Below the pieces are notes generated by a model. That model saw only the letters and a list, made by a program, of their open reading frames with translations. It ran no database searches and had not been told where the DNA came from. The position numbers and the translations under genes are program-made. DNA of 38,909 nucleotides, from the IMG/VR virus record IMGVR_UViG_2630968766_000008, positions 1-38,909 of that record; one strand, given 5' to 3'. Origin of the DNA: a virus (lineage: Duplodnaviria; Heunggongvirae; Uroviricota; Caudoviricetes). This document shows, one piece after another, positions 4,500 to 33,922 of this stretch (its first letter is position 1; each line of letters opens with the position of its first letter).

Positions 4500-4557
4500 A
4501 AAAAGGGCGGCAGAGCAGTCACGGAGTAAAACTGATACCGCCAAACGTCACCAGAAA
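4500..4557 (-). ncRNA. dicF: DicF small RNA (ftsZ translational inhibitor) including its intrinsic terminator
   Basis: Reverse complement of 4500-4557 reads TTTCTGGTGACGTTTGGCGGTATCAGTTTTACTCCGTGACTGCTCTGCCGCCCTTTTT, which matches the DicF sequence as I recall it, ending in a GC-rich hairpin (GGCGG...CCGCC) plus U-run. Lies between ydfC and dicB as in Qin. Confidence 0.75.
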
Positions 4558-10551: not shown

Positions 10552-10736
10552 TTATGACCACAATTACCAGAGAACGACTGCTGGAAATGTTTGCGTGAAA
10601 AGGAGAGTTAAGTAAAATCGCCGCGGGTGCTTGAGGCTATCTGCCTCGGGCATGAACACCAACGGCAGATAGAGAAAAGCCCCAGTTAACATTACGCGTC
10701 CGGCAAGACGCTTAACATTAATCTGAGGCTCAATCT

Positions 10737-10949
10737 ATGAACGGCAAATCTAGGTTAGCCTCTTACGTGCCGAAAGGCAAGGAGAAGCAGGCTATGAAGC
10801 AGCAAAAGGCGATGTTAGTCGCCCTGATCGTCATCTGTATTACCGTCATTGTGACGGCACTGGTAACGAGGAAAGACCTCTGCGAGGTACGAATCCGAAC
10901 CGGCCAGACGGAGGTCGCTGTCTTCACAGCTTACGAACCTGAGGAGTAA
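10737..10949 (+). CDS. mok: Mok-like regulatory reading frame (in-frame N-terminal extension of hok)
   Basis: 70-aa ORF sharing stop with hok, as for mokC/hokC in E. coli K-12 (69/50 aa). Confidence 0.5.
   Translation: MNGKSRLASYVPKGKEKQAMKQQKAMLVALIVICITVIVTALVTRKDLCEVRIRTGQTEVAVFTAYEPEE
10794..10949 (+). CDS. hok: Hok/Gef family type I toxin (membrane-depolarising peptide)
   Basis: 51-aa MKQQKAMLVALIVICITVIVTALVTRKDLCEVRIRTGQTEVAVFTAYEPEE, very close to HokC/Gef; AAGGAGAAG Shine-Dalgarno; followed by strong intrinsic terminator. Confidence 0.85.
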   Translation: MKQQKAMLVALIVICITVIVTALVTRKDLCEVRIRTGQTEVAVFTAYEPEE

Positions 10950-11776: not shown

Positions 11777-12832
11777 GTGCGGGTATTACTTCGACCTGTT
11801 CCGGTACCGGAACTCGGGCTGGTGGTCCTTAGGCCGGGCCGTGAATCCATGCAAGTATTTCATAACCCTCGAGTGCTGGTGGAGCCTGAACCGAAAAGCA
11901 TGCGCGGTCTGCCGTCCGGAGTCGTCCCTGCCGTTCGCCAGCCGCTGGCGGAGGATAAATCATTACTGCCATTTTTCAGCGATGAGCGGGTGATTCGTGC
12001 TGCTGGCGGCGCTGGGGCACTGTCTGACTGGCTGTTGCGTCATGTCAAATCCTGCCAGTGGCCTCATGGTGACTATCATCACAGTGAAATCGTCATACAT
12101 CGTTACGGTACCGGCGCGATGGTGTTGTGCTGGCACTGCGACAACCAGTTGCGTGACCAGACATCCGAATCACTCGGGCAACTTGCTCATCAAAACCTGT
12201 CAGCATGGATGATTGACGTCATACGCCATGCAATGAATGGCACGCAGGAGCGGGAATTGTCGCTGGCTGAATTATCCTGGTGGGCGGTCTGCAATCAGGT
12301 GGCGGACGCGCTTCCGGAGGCAGTATTACGTCGTTCTCTGGGGTTACGTGCGGAAAAAATCCGCTCCTTGTACCGCGAAAGCGACATCGTACCGGGAGAG
12401 CAGACCGCCACCAGCATACTGAAGCAGCGCACAAAAAATCTTGCGCCGTTGCCTCATGCCCACCAGCAAAACCCGCCACAGGAAAAGACGGTGGTCAGCA
12501 TTGCCGTTGATCCGGAGTCACCGGCTCAGTATCTCCAGCGCCAGAAACCACAACGGGAAGAGATGCCTGTATACACGCGTTGGGTAAAAACGCAGAAATG
12601 CATGACGTGCGGTAATCAGGCAGATGATCCGCATCACATCATTGGTCATGGACTGGGAGGGATGGGAACAAAGGCTGATGATTTGTTTGTTATTCCGCTG
12701 TGCCGTAAATGTCATAACGAACTGCACGCCGGGGTAAAAGATTTTGAAGAAAAACACGGCAGCCAGCTGTTGTTGCTGATTCGTTTTTTAATGCACGCGA
12801 GAAATTCGGGTGTCCTGAAGTGGAAAGCATGA
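11777..12832 (+). CDS. DUF968-family protein (YdfU-like) with C-terminal HNH-like Cys/His motif
   Basis: 351-aa ORF, GTG start after GGAGG; C-terminus CGNQADDPHHIIGHGLGG...CRKCHNELHAG; position upstream of rusA and Q matches ydfU in Qin-like prophages. Confidence 0.7.
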   Translation: MRVLLRPVPVPELGLVVLRPGRESMQVFHNPRVLVEPEPKSMRGLPSGVVPAVRQPLAEDKSLLPFFSDERVIRAAGGAGALSDWLLRHVKSCQWPHGDYHHSEIVIHRYGTGAMVLCWHCDNQLRDQTSESLGQLAHQNLSAWMIDVIRHAMNGTQERELSLAELSWWAVCNQVADALPEAVLRRSLGLRAEKIRSLYRESDIVPGEQTATSILKQRTKNLAPLPHAHQQNPPQEKTVVSIAVDPESPAQYLQRQKPQREEMPVYTRWVKTQKCMTCGNQADDPHHIIGHGLGGMGTKADDLFVIPLCRKCHNELHAGVKDFEEKHGSQLLLLIRFLMHARNSGVLKWKA

Positions 12833-13210
12833 ATGACTGAACGCATAGAATTTGTTTTGCCTTACCCGCCGACGGTGAATACCTACTGGCGACGTCATGG
12901 CAATACGTATTTCATCTCGGAGGCCGGAAAGCGTTATCGCCATGATGTGGCGCTAATTGTTCGCCAGCAGCGGTTGAAATTAAACCTGTCCGGAAGGCTG
13001 GCGATAAAGATTATTGCAGAGCCACCGGATAAGCGCCGTCGTGACCTGGACAATATCCTGAAAGCACCACTGGATGCGCTGACGCATGCCGGACTACTCA
13101 TAGACGACGAGCAGTTTGATGAAATTAATATTGTGCGCGGTCAGGTCGTTCCTGGTGGTCGGTTGGGCGTGAAGATTTACGAAATTACAGGTGATAACGA
13201 TGGCGCGTGA
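12833..13210 (+). CDS. rusA: Holliday junction resolvase RusA
   Basis: 125-aa ORF; [13 protein letters not shown]...[28 protein letters not shown] matches RusA motifs (LPWPPSNNRYY...PDRRRRDLDNLQKAAFDAL). Confidence 0.85.
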
Positions 13211-13586
13211 TATTCAGCAGGTTATGGAGCGGTGGGGAGCATGGGCTGCAAACAATCACGAAGATGTGTCATGGGCGTCAATAGCTGCTGGTTTTAAAGG
13301 ATTAATCCCGCCGAAAGTGAAATCACGCCCTCAGTGTTCTGATGATGATGCAATGATAATTTGTGGCTGTATGGCCCGGTTGAACAAGAAAAATCAGGAT
13401 TTGCACGATTTGTTGGTGGATTATTACGTAGGTGGAATGACTTTTATGGGGCTGGCACGAAAGCATGGGTGTTCGGATACCTGTATTGGCAAGCGCCTGC
13501 AGAAAGCGGAAGGGGTTATTGATGGCATGTTGATGATGCTTGATATCCGACTGGAGATGGACAGATACGTAGAACGAATCATGTAG
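13200..13586 (+). CDS. Late gene antiterminator Q (phage 82/21 type)
   Basis: [35 protein letters not shown]...[20 protein letters not shown]...[10 protein letters not shown] closely resembles Q82/QuuD-family antiterminators. Confidence 0.85.
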
Positions 13587-13590
13587 GAGC

Positions 13591-13620
13591 TTGACCAGAC
13601 ACATTGTCCGGGGCTATATT
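13591..13620 (+). promoter_or_regulatory. Late promoter pR' analogue (Q-modified)
   Basis: TTGACC (13591-13596) - 17/18 nt - TATATT (13615-13620) directly downstream of Q. Confidence 0.5.
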
Positions 13621-13682
13621 CCTCACGCGCCAGCAAAATCTGGCGTCGGGATTAGGAACCCCGGATTGAGACCGCGACAGAT

Positions 13683-13706
13683 ACACGCCGCGAGCGTGTT
13701 TTTTAT
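13683..13706 (+). terminator. tR'-like intrinsic terminator of the short late leader RNA
   Basis: ACACGCCGCGAGCGTGT hairpin followed by TTTTTTATT, ~80 nt downstream of the putative pR'. Confidence 0.5.
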
Positions 13707-13867
13707 TGTCGTATGCACGCGCACATCTGAATTATGGTGGGGCGTATGGGGGAGCTGAAAGGCTCGCCGGTTGGTTTCCCGGTAGTTCCTAACCCTGTAC
13801 GTCTCACCACCCGATGATTAGGAACCTGACGGTGGTGATAGTTTAGAAACCACTAGAGGGCGTCATT

Positions 13868-14431
13868 ATGACAACTCAAATCTCTGTTGAAACTCTCTCC
13901 CCGATCACCCATAACCAGATTCCTGTAATTACCACTGAACTTTTGGCGCAGCTTTATGGCACCGAAATTCTGAATATCCAGGTTAACTTCACCAGAAACA
14001 AAGAGCGTTTTGTCGCAGGAAAGCACTTTTTTAAAGCAGCGGGTGAGGAATTAAAAAAATTGCGACTTACTTTAAGTAAGTCACAAAATCCCATCTCTCC
14101 CAAAACCCGCTCCCTCATTCTCTGGACAGAACGAGGCGCAGCCCGTCACGCCAAAATGCTCGAGACCGATCAGGCGTGGGATGTGTTCGAAAAACTGGAA
14201 GACTGTTATTTCAGCCAGAAACAGCCACCAGCAGCACAAAACTCCCCCACCGAAAATGATGGATGCGCATTACTGATCCACTTCGATAAACACGGTCAGG
14301 TCGACTTCACGGAAAAAGTACCCGCCGATGCGATGGTATGCACTCTGGAACGGTTTAAATTTTATCTGGAACAACGCGGCTGGATCGTTGCCCGTAAAGA
14401 GCAGCTGGTGGAACGACTGATGCGGCTTTAA
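13868..14431 (+). CDS. ORF6N/antirepressor-like domain protein
   Basis: 187-aa ORF; N-terminal ~100 aa (ITTELLAQLYGTEILNIQVNFTRNKERFVAGKHFF...ILWTERGAARHAKML) resembles the ORF6N/KilA-N-type DNA-binding domain of phage antirepressors. Confidence 0.5.
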   Translation: MTTQISVETLSPITHNQIPVITTELLAQLYGTEILNIQVNFTRNKERFVAGKHFFKAAGEELKKLRLTLSKSQNPISPKTRSLILWTERGAARHAKMLETDQAWDVFEKLEDCYFSQKQPPAAQNSPTENDGCALLIHFDKHGQVDFTEKVPADAMVCTLERFKFYLEQRGWIVARKEQLVERLMRL

Positions 14432-14506
14432 AAATTTTCCCCGAACGCTTTACGATCGTAAAAAGTTGAATATCCTGTTAAGAGTGGTTACTACGCCACA
14501 CAGCTT

Positions 14507-14532
14507 AAACCCGCCGATGAGCGGGTTTTTTG
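14507..14532 (+). terminator. Rho-independent terminator
   Basis: AAACCCGCCGATGAGCGGGTTTTTTG. Confidence 0.55.
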
Positions 14533-14654
14533 TGCCCGAAAAGCGGTACAGGATGTTAAATGCGCTGGTGGTTGCGAATACAGGTCTTTCAGCTTGCTGG
14601 CTTTTTCGACAAGAGTTATTGGTATGTCACGTTAACCAGAAAAGGGAAAAAGAC

Positions 14655-14852
14655 ATGCTAAAACAGCAGGATATGACCGAAACTGCCAGAGTGGTATTTA
14701 ATGAATTAAGTGTCACCGAACCAGCGACCGTCGGGGAAATTGCGCAGAATACTTACCTTTCACGTGAACGCTGCCAGTTAATACTGACCCAGCTTGTTAT
14801 GGCGGGTCTGGCAGATTATCAGTTCGGTTGTTACAGACGCCTTCCGCAGTGA
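14655..14852 (+). CDS. Small winged-helix DNA-binding protein (65 aa)
   Basis: ATG 14655 with AGGGA upstream; ...ELSVTEPATVGEIAQNTYLSRERCQLILTQLVMAGL... HTH-like pattern; directly upstream of the methyltransferase. Confidence 0.4.
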   Translation: MLKQQDMTETARVVFNELSVTEPATVGEIAQNTYLSRERCQLILTQLVMAGLADYQFGCYRRLPQ

Positions 14853-15002
14853 AGGCTTTTTAATTTGTGGTAATGGGCGGCTGGTGGGTGTTAGCGGCAC
14901 CTGCCAGCCATCTGCTCATGCGTTGGGGTCACAAGCAAACCTCAGGCCCATCTGCTTTGCGCAAAAGCGGTATGAGCCTATCAGAGAAGCGCTTATTGAT
15001 CT

Positions 15003-16055
15003 ATGGCTAATACTGTAAAAATATCCAGTTGTGAGTTAATCAACGCTGATTGCCTGGAATTTATCCAGACCTTACCGGAAAACTCTGTCGATCTGATAGT
15101 CACAGACCCGCCATACTTTAAAGTGAAGCCCGAGAGCTGGGATAACCAGTGGAAGGGGGACGATGATTACCTGAAATGGCTCGACCAGTGTCTGGCGCAG
15201 TTCTGGCGGGTACTGAAGCCCGCCGGAAGTCTTTACCTGTTCTGTGGTCATCGCCTGGCATCTGACACCGAAATTATGATGCGTGAACGCTTTAATGTGC
15301 TGAATCACATTATCTGGGCGAAGCCGTCAGGACGCTGGAACAGGTGCAACAAGGAAAGCCTGCGGGCGTATTTCCCGGCAACAGAGCGCATTCTGTTTGC
15401 CGAACATTATCAGGGGCCATACCAGCCCAAAAATGACGGCTATGCGGCAAAAGAAAGGGAACTCAAACAGCACATAATGGCACCGCTGATATCGTATTTC
15501 AGGGATGCTCGTGCCGAACTGGGTATAACGGCAAAACAAATTGCCGAAGCCACAGGTAAGAAAAATATGGTTTCCCACTGGTTTGGTGCCAGTCAGTGGC
15601 AGTTGCCGAATGAGGCTGACTATCGGAAGTTACAGGCACTGTTTTCCCGTATAGCGGCAGAGAAGTTTCAGGAACAACAACTGGAACAACCACACCACCA
15701 GCTGGTGGCATCTTATGATTCACTGAATCGCAAATATTCTGAATTGCTGGATAAGTTTAAATCTCTCCGGCGCTATTTCTCCGTATCAGTCTCCGTGCCT
15801 TATACCGATGTCTGGATGCATAAACCCGTTCAGTTCTACCCGGGTAAACATCCGTGTGAGAAACCGGCGGATATGCTCAGGCAAATAATCAATGCCAGTA
15901 GTCGACCTGGTGATCTGGTTGCTGATTTTTTTATGGGATCCGGTTCCACAATAAAAGCAGCAATGGCGCTGGGGCGTCGGGCCTTAGGTGTTGAGCTTGA
16001 GTCAGAGCGGTTTAACCAGACGGTGAAAGAGGTAAGTGAACTGGTGGGGGAATAA
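15003..16055 (+). CDS. DNA methyltransferase (N6-adenine/N4-cytosine, DPPY catalytic motif)
   Basis: 350-aa ORF; motif IV VTDPPYF near N-terminus and SAM-binding FFMGSGSTIKAA near C-terminus (beta-class arrangement). Confidence 0.85.
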   Translation: MANTVKISSCELINADCLEFIQTLPENSVDLIVTDPPYFKVKPESWDNQWKGDDDYLKWLDQCLAQFWRVLKPAGSLYLFCGHRLASDTEIMMRERFNVLNHIIWAKPSGRWNRCNKESLRAYFPATERILFAEHYQGPYQPKNDGYAAKERELKQHIMAPLISYFRDARAELGITAKQIAEATGKKNMVSHWFGASQWQLPNEADYRKLQALFSRIAAEKFQEQQLEQPHHQLVASYDSLNRKYSELLDKFKSLRRYFSVSVSVPYTDVWMHKPVQFYPGKHPCEKPADMLRQIINASSRPGDLVADFFMGSGSTIKAAMALGRRALGVELESERFNQTVKEVSELVGE

Positions 16056-16105
16056 TTCTGGTGTCAGAGCTTTTATTCGCTAATTTTTTCACTGGGAGGC
16101 TATTT

Positions 16106-16363
16106 ATGCATTCACACCATCATCAAATATCTATGATCCCACTTACCATGAGTTCACCCATTAAAGGTTTTTCACTGTATGTAGAAAGCGAAGACATGGC
16201 TGTCGCTATAGCTGAGCTTGAAAATGCCTTATCACAGCTCAAGAATGGAGATAAGGCATTCAAAGAAAGTGGCACGCTGGTTGGTAACGTCAGAGCAAGT
16301 TATTGCTATCCTTACCGTCCTCATTGTGCCGCGAAAGGTCTTTATTGGGATGAAGGGGATTAA
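16106..16363 (+). CDS. Hypothetical protein (85 aa)
   Basis: ATG 16106 preceded by GGGAGG (7-nt spacer); stop overlaps the stop of the convergent minus-strand gene (TTAA). Confidence 0.35.
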   Translation: MHSHHHQISMIPLTMSSPIKGFSLYVESEDMAVAIAELENALSQLKNGDKAFKESGTLVGNVRASYCYPYRPHCAAKGLYWDEGD

Positions 16364-33377: not shown

Positions 33378-33922
33378 AAACGGGGGCCGAAGCCATCCGG
33401 GCGCTGGCCACACAGCTCCCGGCGTTTCGTCAGAAACTGAATGAGGGCTGGTATCAGGTGCGCATTGCCGGGCGTGATGCAGGCGAAAATGAATTATCTG
33501 CCCGTCTTAATGAGCCGCTGGCAAATGGTGCCGTGATCCACATCGTGCCGCGTCTGGCGGGAGCTAAAAGTGGCGGTGTGTTTCAGGTGGTGCTTGGGGC
33601 GGCGCTGATTGCGGTGGCATGGTGGAATCCTGTGAGTTGGCTGGGTGCCGCGGCTGTATCGGGCATGTATGCGGCAGGGGCCAGTATGATCCTGGGCGGA
33701 GTGGCGCAGATGCTGGCACCGAAAGCCAGGACGCCCACGGCAGCCAGTACAGATAACGGCAAACAGAACACGTATTTCTCCTCACTGGATAACATGGTTG
33801 CCCAGGGCAATGTTCTGCCGGTTCTGTACGGGGAAATGCGCGTGGGGTCACGCGTGGTTTCTCAGGAGATCAGCACGGCAGACGAAGGGGACGGTGGTCA
33901 GGTTGTGGTGATTGGTCGCTGA
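33275..33922 (+). CDS. I: Tail assembly protein I
   Basis: 215-aa, ubiquitin-like N-terminus and hydrophobic C-terminal half; ends ...TADEGDGGQVVVIGR; start may lie a little downstream, since 33275 overlaps K by 103 nt. Confidence 0.8.
   Translation: MAATHTLPLASPGMARICLYGDLQRFGRRIDLRVKTGAEAIRALATQLPAFRQKLNEGWYQVRIAGRDAGENELSARLNEPLANGAVIHIVPRLAGAKSGGVFQVVLGAALIAVAWWNPVSWLGAAAVSGMYAAGASMILGGVAQMLAPKARTPTAASTDNGKQNTYFSSLDNMVAQGNVLPVLYGEMRVGSRVVSQEISTADEGDGGQVVVIGR

Follow-up and report, generated by a model that had tools for sequence, protein, structure and literature searches.

A probable P1/P7 immI-type antisense RNA module, counterpart of the Gifsy-1 isrK locus, between Q and an ORF6N antirepressor gene of an Escherichia coli lambdoid prophage

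The window (the whole stretch of DNA that was analysed, 38,909 nucleotides) contains a gene for a 131-residue Q protein that matches Pfam PF06530 and is 80-83% identical to the Q proteins of 933W and VT2-Sakai. The gene whose ATG lies at 13868 encodes a protein with an ORF6N domain (Pfam, E = 2e-20); its full-length match to PHROG 2379 'anti-repressor' has E = 3e-90, and its identity with AnrP of the Salmonella prophage Gifsy-1 is 56% over 186 residues. Positions 13591-13867, which precede it, comprise a sigma-70 promoter, a terminated RNA of about 79 nt, a C4 antisense RNA and target sites before the ORF6N gene (Table 1); in an Rfam scan of the window, all three matches to this segment (isrK, c4-a1b1 and C4) exceeded their gathering scores. 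An earlier reading of the DNA, referred to here as the original prediction, had proposed that this segment controls cargo genes; the next gene downstream is indeed the apparent target, but it is an antirepressor homologue rather than generic cargo. ARAGORN detected neither tRNAs nor a tmRNA in the window, so the structured element does not represent the tRNA-like cargo that Stx phages carry. The leader of the module was present in 775 of 5426 complete E. coli genomes, in at most four copies per genome, and among the matches listed from these genomes none of 12 places had an annotated feature under the leader match.

Table 1. Features of the antirepressor cassette and of the late promoter that follows it (window coordinates).
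Feature	Position	Strand	Sequence or basis
Sigma-70 promoter	13591..13620	+	-35 TTGACC (13591-13596), 18-nt spacer, -10 TATATT (13615-13620)
IsrK-like short terminated RNA (a1/b1 leader)	13627..13705	+	Rfam isrK, c4-a1b1, terminator
a1 target site	13651..13659	+	ATTAGGAAC, first direct copy, in loop of hairpin 2; complementary to 13785-13792
b1 target site	13668..13674	+	GAGACCG; pairs with b' loop using G-U wobbles
C4-type antisense RNA	13736..13811	+	Mature ends predicted from P1 C4 homology; Rfam match 13730-13814
b' site	13772-13778	+	UGGUUUC, in loop of C4 hairpin 2
a' site	13785..13793	+	GTTCCTAA(C), inverted copy; single-stranded stretch 13785-13792 of C4
Precursor-only hairpin	13804..13838	+	TCACCACC (13804-13811) / GGTGGTGA (13831-13838), a2 in loop
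a2 target site	13817..13825	+	ATTAGGAAC, second direct copy, 5 nt past predicted C4 3' end
b2 target site	13846..13852	+	GAAACCA; starts 29 nt after start of a2, spacing as in P1
ORF6N-domain antirepressor, 187 aa	13868..14431	+	Pfam, PHROG, AnrP identity
Late promoter PR' and early leader (context, outside module)	14449..14537	+	Similarity to VT2-Sakai PR'

The promoter begins 4 nt past the stop codon of Q and matches the consensus at 10 of 12 positions, as the original prediction of a near-consensus promoter in this place had it; it was the only sigma-70-like site in a scan of positions 12500-15500. Its -35 and -10 elements are conserved in VT2-Sakai, Gifsy-1 and P1, and it is the positional homologue of Gifsy-1 PisrK and of P1 P1c4 (formerly P51b); it looks constitutive and would initiate near 13627. 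The strong intrinsic terminator predicted about 80 nt further on is likewise present, with a G+C-rich stem at 13683-13699 (ACACGC/GCGTGT) followed by T6, and a transcript that started near 13627 and ended there would measure about 79 nt. This RNA matches the isrK model (RF01394) at 13627-13704 with 68.9 bits against a gathering score of 50, and the alignment includes both 5' hairpins of the model and the intrinsic terminator, whereas the match to c4-a1b1 (RF03163) at 13614-13667 lies barely above its threshold (47.9 bits against 46.7). The layout consists of hairpin 1 (13627-13646), hairpin 2 (13647-13663), which displays a1 in its loop, a single-stranded b1 and the terminator, and the context is that of IsrK, with a promoter of its own upstream, then a region resembling orf45/STnc1160 and an AnrP-like gene. 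Hairpin 1 shows compensatory changes among relatives in a 45-sequence alignment; folded alone, positions 13627-13706 were not significantly more stable than shuffled sequences (z = -1.24).

The C4 model (RF01695) matched positions 13730-13814 with 65.7 bits, against a gathering score of 45. The predicted fold has a 17-bp acceptor-like closing stem and two inner hairpins, with a minimum free energy of -42.3 kcal/mol (z = -3.64), and of the segments folded against shuffles only C4 and the whole leader stood out. The C4 stems covary among relatives in the 45-sequence alignment, and the candidate has the conserved 5' sequence, the acceptor-like stem and a 3' end in ...CCACC. The ends of P1 C4 were taken from the P1 annotation; the 5' end of P1 C4 is made by RNase P.

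The segment also holds three copies of a short motif. The two direct repeats of ATTAGGAAC are both exact, as originally described; the inverted copy (GTTCCTAAC), also present, matches the motif at 8 of 9 positions. Within C4, the inverted copy constitutes a', and GUUCCUAA of a' can pair with UUAGGAAC at 13818-13825. A second triplet, b1/b'/b2, had been missed; here UGGUUUC of b' can pair with GAAACCA of b2, and b2 adjoins the Shine-Dalgarno sequence AGAGGG (13855-13860), ending 2 nt before it, so that the site abuts but does not overlap it. This is the arrangement of the C4 family: a' and b' are complementary to a2 and b2 downstream, with b2 by the ribosome-binding site, and the targets are duplicated (a1, b1) ahead of C4 on the same transcript. 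The position of a1 corresponds to that of P1 a1 and to the Gifsy-1 pairs G28:C162 and G31:C159, and a2 occupies the same position as P1 a2.

Predicted duplex energies indicate that a' pairs more strongly with a1 than with a2, and b' more strongly with b2 than with b1, a bias that is the same in the window, Gifsy-1 and P1; the b1:b' helix has a predicted duplex energy of -8.2 kcal/mol and 98.7% of alignment cells paired. These modelled energies fit a competition between the IsrK-type RNA and the mRNA for C4. Local duplex energies were used in place of RNAcofold, which yielded no energy gain for whole C4 with IsrK or with the mRNA leader because the algorithm cannot model loop-loop pairing.

The original prediction had also noted an 8-bp stem at 13804-13838 enclosing one copy of the motif, and this stem is present and conserved in relatives. 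It forms in the predicted fold of 13800-13880, a fold no more stable than that of shuffled sequence (z = -0.63); every E. coli module retains it (99.4% of cells paired), and it recurs with altered sequence in P1 (CCUGCCACC/GGGUAGCAGG) and phiP27 (CCGCCACC/GGUGGUGG). The 5' arm of the stem doubles as the 3' strand of the C4 closing stem and the two pairings compete, which confines the stem to precursor RNA that has not been processed. In that RNA it may present a2 in a loop, as a1 is presented in a hairpin loop, or it may compete with the C4 closing stem; by its position we infer a role in target display or in processing control.

A pattern scan of viral contigs returned 119 DNA stretches. Four of these were unrelated sequences that happened to match the search pattern and were left out, and with the window and VT2-Sakai added the set came to 117 modules. 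For 116 of these 117, a1 had the same sequence as a2, and a' was its reverse complement; the sites fell into six classes that change in concert at all three positions and represent only a few independent events because the E. coli modules are close relatives. Besides the class of this window (a1/a2 ATTAGGAAC, a' GTTCCTAA) and that of VT2-Sakai (a1/a2 ATTGGCGTC, a' ACGCCAA), these are ATTGGAACC with a' GTTCCAA, ATTCGAACC with a' GTTCGAA, ATTGAGACC with a' GTCTCAA and ATTGGCATC with a' ATGCCAA. The sequences flanking the a sites are nearly constant across all six classes.

Covarying pairs were counted on the 45-sequence alignment and compared with 500 shuffles and with controls in which the partners were slid along the alignment. 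In both the a1:a' and the a2:a' helix, both sides had changed in five of eight pairs, with 98.5% and 99.1% of cells paired, respectively; none of the 500 shuffles reached the observed covariation values, and sliding the partners by 1-3 columns reduced pairing to 31-44%. More distant relatives have swapped their b sites in concert too, and six distinct b-site sequences, each matched three ways, were found in the window, Gifsy-1, P1, APSE-7, a Yersinia phage and phiP27; in the last five, the equivalent of b2 overlaps the Shine-Dalgarno sequence or the start codon. Across the window as a whole ATTAGGAAC is not enriched, with 4 matches at no more than one mismatch where 6.7 were expected. The evidence against a chance recurrence here is that three copies are packed into 175 nt and, most of all, that they change together in related modules. 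The layout of the module, its complementary sites and their covariation are read directly from sequence data.

Cognate a'/a2 duplexes have predicted energies of -8 to -10 kcal/mol, and most non-cognate combinations are weaker than -4; neighbouring classes (GGAAC with and without an extra A; GGCGT and GGCAT) are predicted to cross-react at -6.9 to -8.5 kcal/mol. By analogy with P1/P7 heteroimmunity, the variable a site would set which C4 recognises which cassette.

The C4 antisense RNA of the P1/P7 immI region, with its a1/b1 and a2/b2 targets, was reportedly described by Citron and Schuster in 1990 as controlling icd-ant. P1 immI has the same order of elements as the window (promoter, hairpin, a1 in a hairpin loop, b1, terminator-like hairpin, C4, a2, b2, antirepressor operon) and nearly all of the same spacings, including a2 just past the C4 3' end and b2 29 nt on. 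The 5' end of P1 C4 (GAAUUAUGGUGGGGCGU) is nearly identical to that of C4 in the window, and P1 also has a stem enclosing a2. The two loci differ in that the window lacks an icd gene, its first open reading frame being the antirepressor, of ORF6N rather than Ant1/2 type; in that the host of the module is a lambdoid prophage, with the cassette between Q and PR'; and in the sequences of the a and b sites. P1 has a terminator-like hairpin between b1 and c4, and the terminator after b1 is much stronger in the window, the isrK model scoring 68.9 bits here against 35 on P1.

The closest studied relative is the antQ-isrK-orf45/STnc1160-anrP-isrJ locus of Gifsy-1, which has the same layout directly after the stop codon of its Q gene, antQ. 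The promoter -10 element, IsrK, C4 and the stem sequences are very similar, and the antirepressor is also 187 residues long. The differences lie in the a class (UUGGCGU in Gifsy-1, AUUAGGAAC in the window), in the b class (CGGUGAU against GGUUUC), in the adjacent Q gene, which is of the Q82 type in Gifsy-1 and of the Q21/Q933W type here, and in 'orf45', which overlaps the anrP start codon in Gifsy-1, whereas its equivalent in the window has 27 codons and ends 50 nt upstream. In Gifsy-1, PisrK drives transcription of anrP, with the IsrK terminator ending the majority of transcripts (Hershko-Shalev et al. 2016, PMC4825925); RNA extending past it is translationally silent, anrP translation rises more than 100-fold when IsrK is provided in trans, and the pairs G28:C162 and G31:C159 were confirmed by compensatory mutants (PMC4825925). 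A stable processed RNA, STnc1160, arises downstream of IsrK from the C4 region (PMC4825925), and both IsrK and STnc1160 are highly transcribed in lysogens (PMC7067206). When Gifsy-1 is numbered from the IsrK start, G28 and G31 fall in a1 (UUGGCGU) and C159 and C162 in a' (ACGCCAA); IsrK is therefore the a1/b1 leader, and STnc1160/'orf45' the C4 homologue.

The P4 CI RNA resembles the module in being a processed antisense RNA with complementary sites (seqA/seqC) upstream and downstream in one transcript. P4 CI differs in that it works through transcription termination and has replication genes under its control; no relationship to the module was seen in sequence or in Rfam. The authors of the Gifsy-1 study compare the isrK locus with P4 CI RNA, and in the accessible text of that article P1 C4 is unmentioned (PMC4825925).

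From these comparisons we conclude, with a probability of roughly 85%, that positions 13591-13867 constitute a full P1/P7 immI-type module that forms the RNA control region of an antirepressor cassette and is the E. coli counterpart of the Gifsy-1 isrK locus. The segment is a previously unannotated but ordinary member of a known regulatory family that includes the P1 C4 antisense RNA and Salmonella IsrK. The ORF6N gene would accordingly be under control of the C4 module, in a scheme whose processing, antisense repression and decoy steps are drawn from P1/P7 and Gifsy-1. Transcription from the promoter at 13591 would start near 13627, and the terminator at 13683-13705 would release an IsrK-like RNA of about 79 nt bearing a1 and b1. 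Transcripts that read through would hold the C4-type RNA (approximately 13736-13811) and, beyond it, a2 and then b2, which abuts the antirepressor's ribosome-binding site. C4, presumably excised from the read-through transcript as in P1/P7 and Gifsy-1, would pair with a2 and b2 and block translation of the antirepressor, and the prophage would stay repressed. The terminated IsrK-like RNA, bearing the same sites, may act as a competitor or decoy for C4, and the same sites may also pair in cis within the precursor; in excess, the IsrK-like RNA would free the ribosome-binding site, the antirepressor would be made and the prophage would be induced.

Where the late promoter of this phage lies bears directly on how the segment is to be read. 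Positions 14449-14531 are 84% identical over 83 nt to PR' of VT2-Sakai, for which dRNA-seq in strain Sakai located the start site (PMC7547250); Sakai coordinates 1,266,203 to 1,266,460 were placed at positions 592-849 of the VT2-Sakai locus (L002) by aligning the reported 3' end to the terminator (PMC7547250). The homologue in the window has a -35 element TTTACG (14449-14454), a -10 element TATCCT (14471-14476), a putative start near 14483 and an early hairpin with a T run at 14511-14537, and it lies about 860 bp downstream of the 13591 promoter, just past the antirepressor gene. The PR' segment abuts Q in more than 350 phage records. In a comparison with Q933W, homology breaks off in the last Q codons and picks up again at the PR' -35 element, which marks the cassette (13587-14448) as inserted between the Q gene and PR'. 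The module directly follows this Q allele (97-99% identical) in 16 other loci, all with a PR'-like sequence downstream: just past the cassette in 14 (+682 to +884 from the C4 anchor), and in the remaining two further out, at +2836 in one and at +1676 in the other, where the match spans only 35 nt. Among loci with the module upstream of Q, nine have PR' no more than 48 nt past Q and two have it about 780 nt past Q; the other five yielded no PR' match, some of them being cut off too close to Q. The nin region, far away from Q, houses the cassette in VT2-Sakai and in 40 further loci; in VT2-Sakai, nin60 and ant flank the C4 module, which has its own conserved promoter, and a different promoter follows Q. 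Gifsy-1 places its cassette between Q and the late promoter in the same way, after an unrelated Q82-type Q, and the isrJ promoter and 5' region, just past anrP, match DNA adjoining Q in Klebsiella, Enterobacter and E. coli phages. A search for a late promoter in 16885-17110, just ahead of the holin gene, gave no convincing candidate, although a terminator-like hairpin is present at 17040-17062. A Trp_leader match in Rfam at 14461-14534 (19 bits, gathering score 41) reflected only the early hairpin of PR'.

The original prediction had read the segment as a pR'-6S RNA-tR' unit, with 13591 as the late promoter pR', the 79-nt RNA as a 6S-like transcript and Q reading through position 13706 into the downstream genes. 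Lambdoid leaders of this kind (lambda 6S RNA; StxS, PMC7547250) do share a short terminated RNA and a constitutive promoter next to Q with the window, where the promoter starts 4 nt past the Q stop codon with a strong terminator some 80 nt on, and the adjacency of module and Q recurs in Gifsy-1; a promoter right after Q followed by an intrinsic terminator is, however, not specific to that family by itself. The unit at 13591 is not homologous to those leaders, the true member of the family being at 14449-14537, and no similarity was found between the 13591 promoter or leader and PR' of the Q933W family, although the Q proteins are 80-83% identical. Q-binding and pause elements that match the adjacent Q would be expected to pass on with the Q allele, but this promoter-terminator unit travels with the C4 cassette and in most loci is unlinked to Q, as in the nin region of VT2-Sakai, a phage with its own PR' after Q; since the cassette follows two unrelated Q families, it cannot carry a matching Q-binding element for both. 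Together with the clear PR' homologue downstream of the module here and in the 16 other loci, these observations make a late leader at 13591 very improbable. The 8-mer AAAATCTG occurs both in IsrK hairpin 1 and in the PR' spacer of VT2-Sakai; it was considered as a Q-binding site and dismissed because the window's own PR' lacks it. Q-modified polymerase loads downstream, at PR', and so never crosses the cassette. In Gifsy-1 the leader governs an antirepressor, and the antirepressor activates Q (PMC4825925); by analogy, cause and effect here probably run opposite to the first proposal, from the leader through the antirepressor to Q.

The repeats themselves had been taken as either regulator binding sites or RNA structure, and of these the second has held: the copies behave as RNA-RNA recognition sites, accompanied by a structured stem, and as RNA they covary. 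That they are DNA operators for a protein regulator, as three copies within 175 bp with one inverted might suggest, is scarcely credible, given that each copy occupies a hairpin loop or an unpaired stretch within RNA structures that covary, that every one is downstream of the transcription start, and that the inverted copy always changes so as to stay complementary, not identical. A more serious competitor is the model published for Gifsy-1, in which, as set out in the accessible text, the long transcript refolds in cis and translation is coupled through 'orf45', with no processed trans-acting repressor (PMC4825925). Applied here, the C4-like region would be part of a silent long mRNA that the IsrK-like RNA remodels, with a small upstream open reading frame coupling translation. 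This is the experimentally supported model for the closest studied homologue (PMC4825925), a1 and a' pair in cis when the whole leader is folded to minimum free energy, and co-expression of the STnc1160 region did not relieve IsrK toxicity in the experiments described there (PMC4825925). Against it stand the processed RNA that exists from this region in Salmonella (PMC4825925) and the fact that a2 and b2 are conserved beside the ribosome-binding site and covary with a' and b', exactly as an antisense model predicts. Furthermore, the upstream open reading frame in the window has 27 codons and stops 50 nt before the antirepressor ATG, and in E. coli modules generally it has 27-36 codons and ends 24-53 nt before the main ATG; because its length varies and it never overlaps the start codon, coupling is not a conserved feature, and the 'orf45' coupling model is unlikely to apply generally. 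Hfq binding and activation in trans by IsrK are, in the published account as available, known only for Salmonella (PMC4825925). We regard an exclusively cis-acting mechanism as unlikely for the E. coli module, and the cis-only and the trans-acting C4 models are not mutually exclusive.

The immI-type reading corrects an easy misannotation, in that a promoter and terminator right after Q are not necessarily a late leader, and it links two literatures by equating IsrK with the a1/b1 leader of P1 immI and STnc1160/'orf45' with C4. The module would control antirepressors able to trigger prophage induction, including in Stx phages, and its discrete target-site classes suggest rules for cross-talk between prophages. 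As a tentative and still somewhat doubtful extension, we propose that the terminated IsrK-type RNA is a dedicated C4 decoy, that the a-site classes form a largely orthogonal RNA 'address code' deciding which co-resident prophages repress or release each other's antirepressors, and that placement of the cassette between Q and PR' in two unrelated Q families reflects selection rather than accident. If this were true, the address code would act among co-resident lambdoid prophages in polylysogenic E. coli.

The late promoter that probably belongs with this Q, a 131-aa protein of the Q21/Q933W type, opens window segment 14449-14862, directly 3' of the cassette that carries the IsrK-like RNA, the C4 antisense RNA and the ORF6N antirepressor gene; the promoter found there is homologous to the PR' of Stx phages. 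Between PR' and the S21-type holin, window 15003-17062 contains three genes and one hairpin; two of the genes are listed in the table, and the third, a 100-aa ORF, has no matching family.

Features of the late region and other elements of the window
Feature	Position	Strand	Remark
PR' -35	14449		TTTACG
PR' -10	14471		TATCCT
PR' transcription start	near 14483		inferred
Early hairpin and T run of PR'	14511-14537
65-aa ORF, 3' of PR'	14655-14852		PHROG 331
Terminator-like hairpin after 65-aa ORF	14839-14862
N6/N4 DNA methylase gene	15003-16055
ORF	16360-16884	reverse	PHROG 5663
Terminator-like hairpin	17040-17062		directly 5' of holin gene
27-codon ORF	13735-13818		starts at conserved ATG within 5' strand of C4
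sok antitoxin RNA	10625-10799	+	Rfam gathering-level match, 107 bits
DicF RNA	4505-4556	-	Rfam gathering-level match, 76.7 bits

At the upstream junction (window 13560-13590), the homology of this Q allele with Q933W, the Q of phage 933W, stops; the C-terminal tail of Q933W, approximately 16 residues, is missing, and the stop codon of Q lies 4 nt before the -35 element of the cassette. In the Stx phage VT2-Sakai and in Gifsy-1 of Salmonella, too, the cassette starts right at the preceding gene's stop codon. Two loci with related modules, L069 and L085, have the C4 module upstream of Q, and there Q and a PR'-like sequence are separated by about 780 nt; another insert, distinct from the C4 module, appears to occupy the same Q/PR' junction.

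As in the window, the Gifsy-1 cassette is wedged between Q and PR'. The isrJ promoter and 5' part (positions 33390-33520 of the Gifsy-1 locus L124, minus strand), just past anrP, match DNA adjoining Q genes in phages of Klebsiella, Enterobacter and E. coli; this match suggests that the IsrJ sRNA is the terminated PR' leader belonging with AntQ, a Q of the Q82 type.

In phage P1, a hairpin that resembles a terminator and carries a T run lies between b1 and c4 (positions 283-312 of the P1 locus L123). The isrK model reaches 35 bits in this region, suggesting that P1 may also make a short a1/b1 RNA. The small ORF within the C4 region is 27 to 36 codons long among relatives; Gifsy-1 alone has 45 codons and an ATGA overlap. 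This ORF seems to be incidental to the RNA sequence and not conserved for coding. The sok and DicF matches sit elsewhere in the prophage, apart from the cassette.

One related module (L046, 7941-8205) is chimeric; its a1 and a' are of the GGAAC class, its a2 is ATTGGCGTC, and the downstream sequence also differs. The C4 of this module should not recognise its own target, which could be recognised by a co-resident C4 of the GGCGT class.
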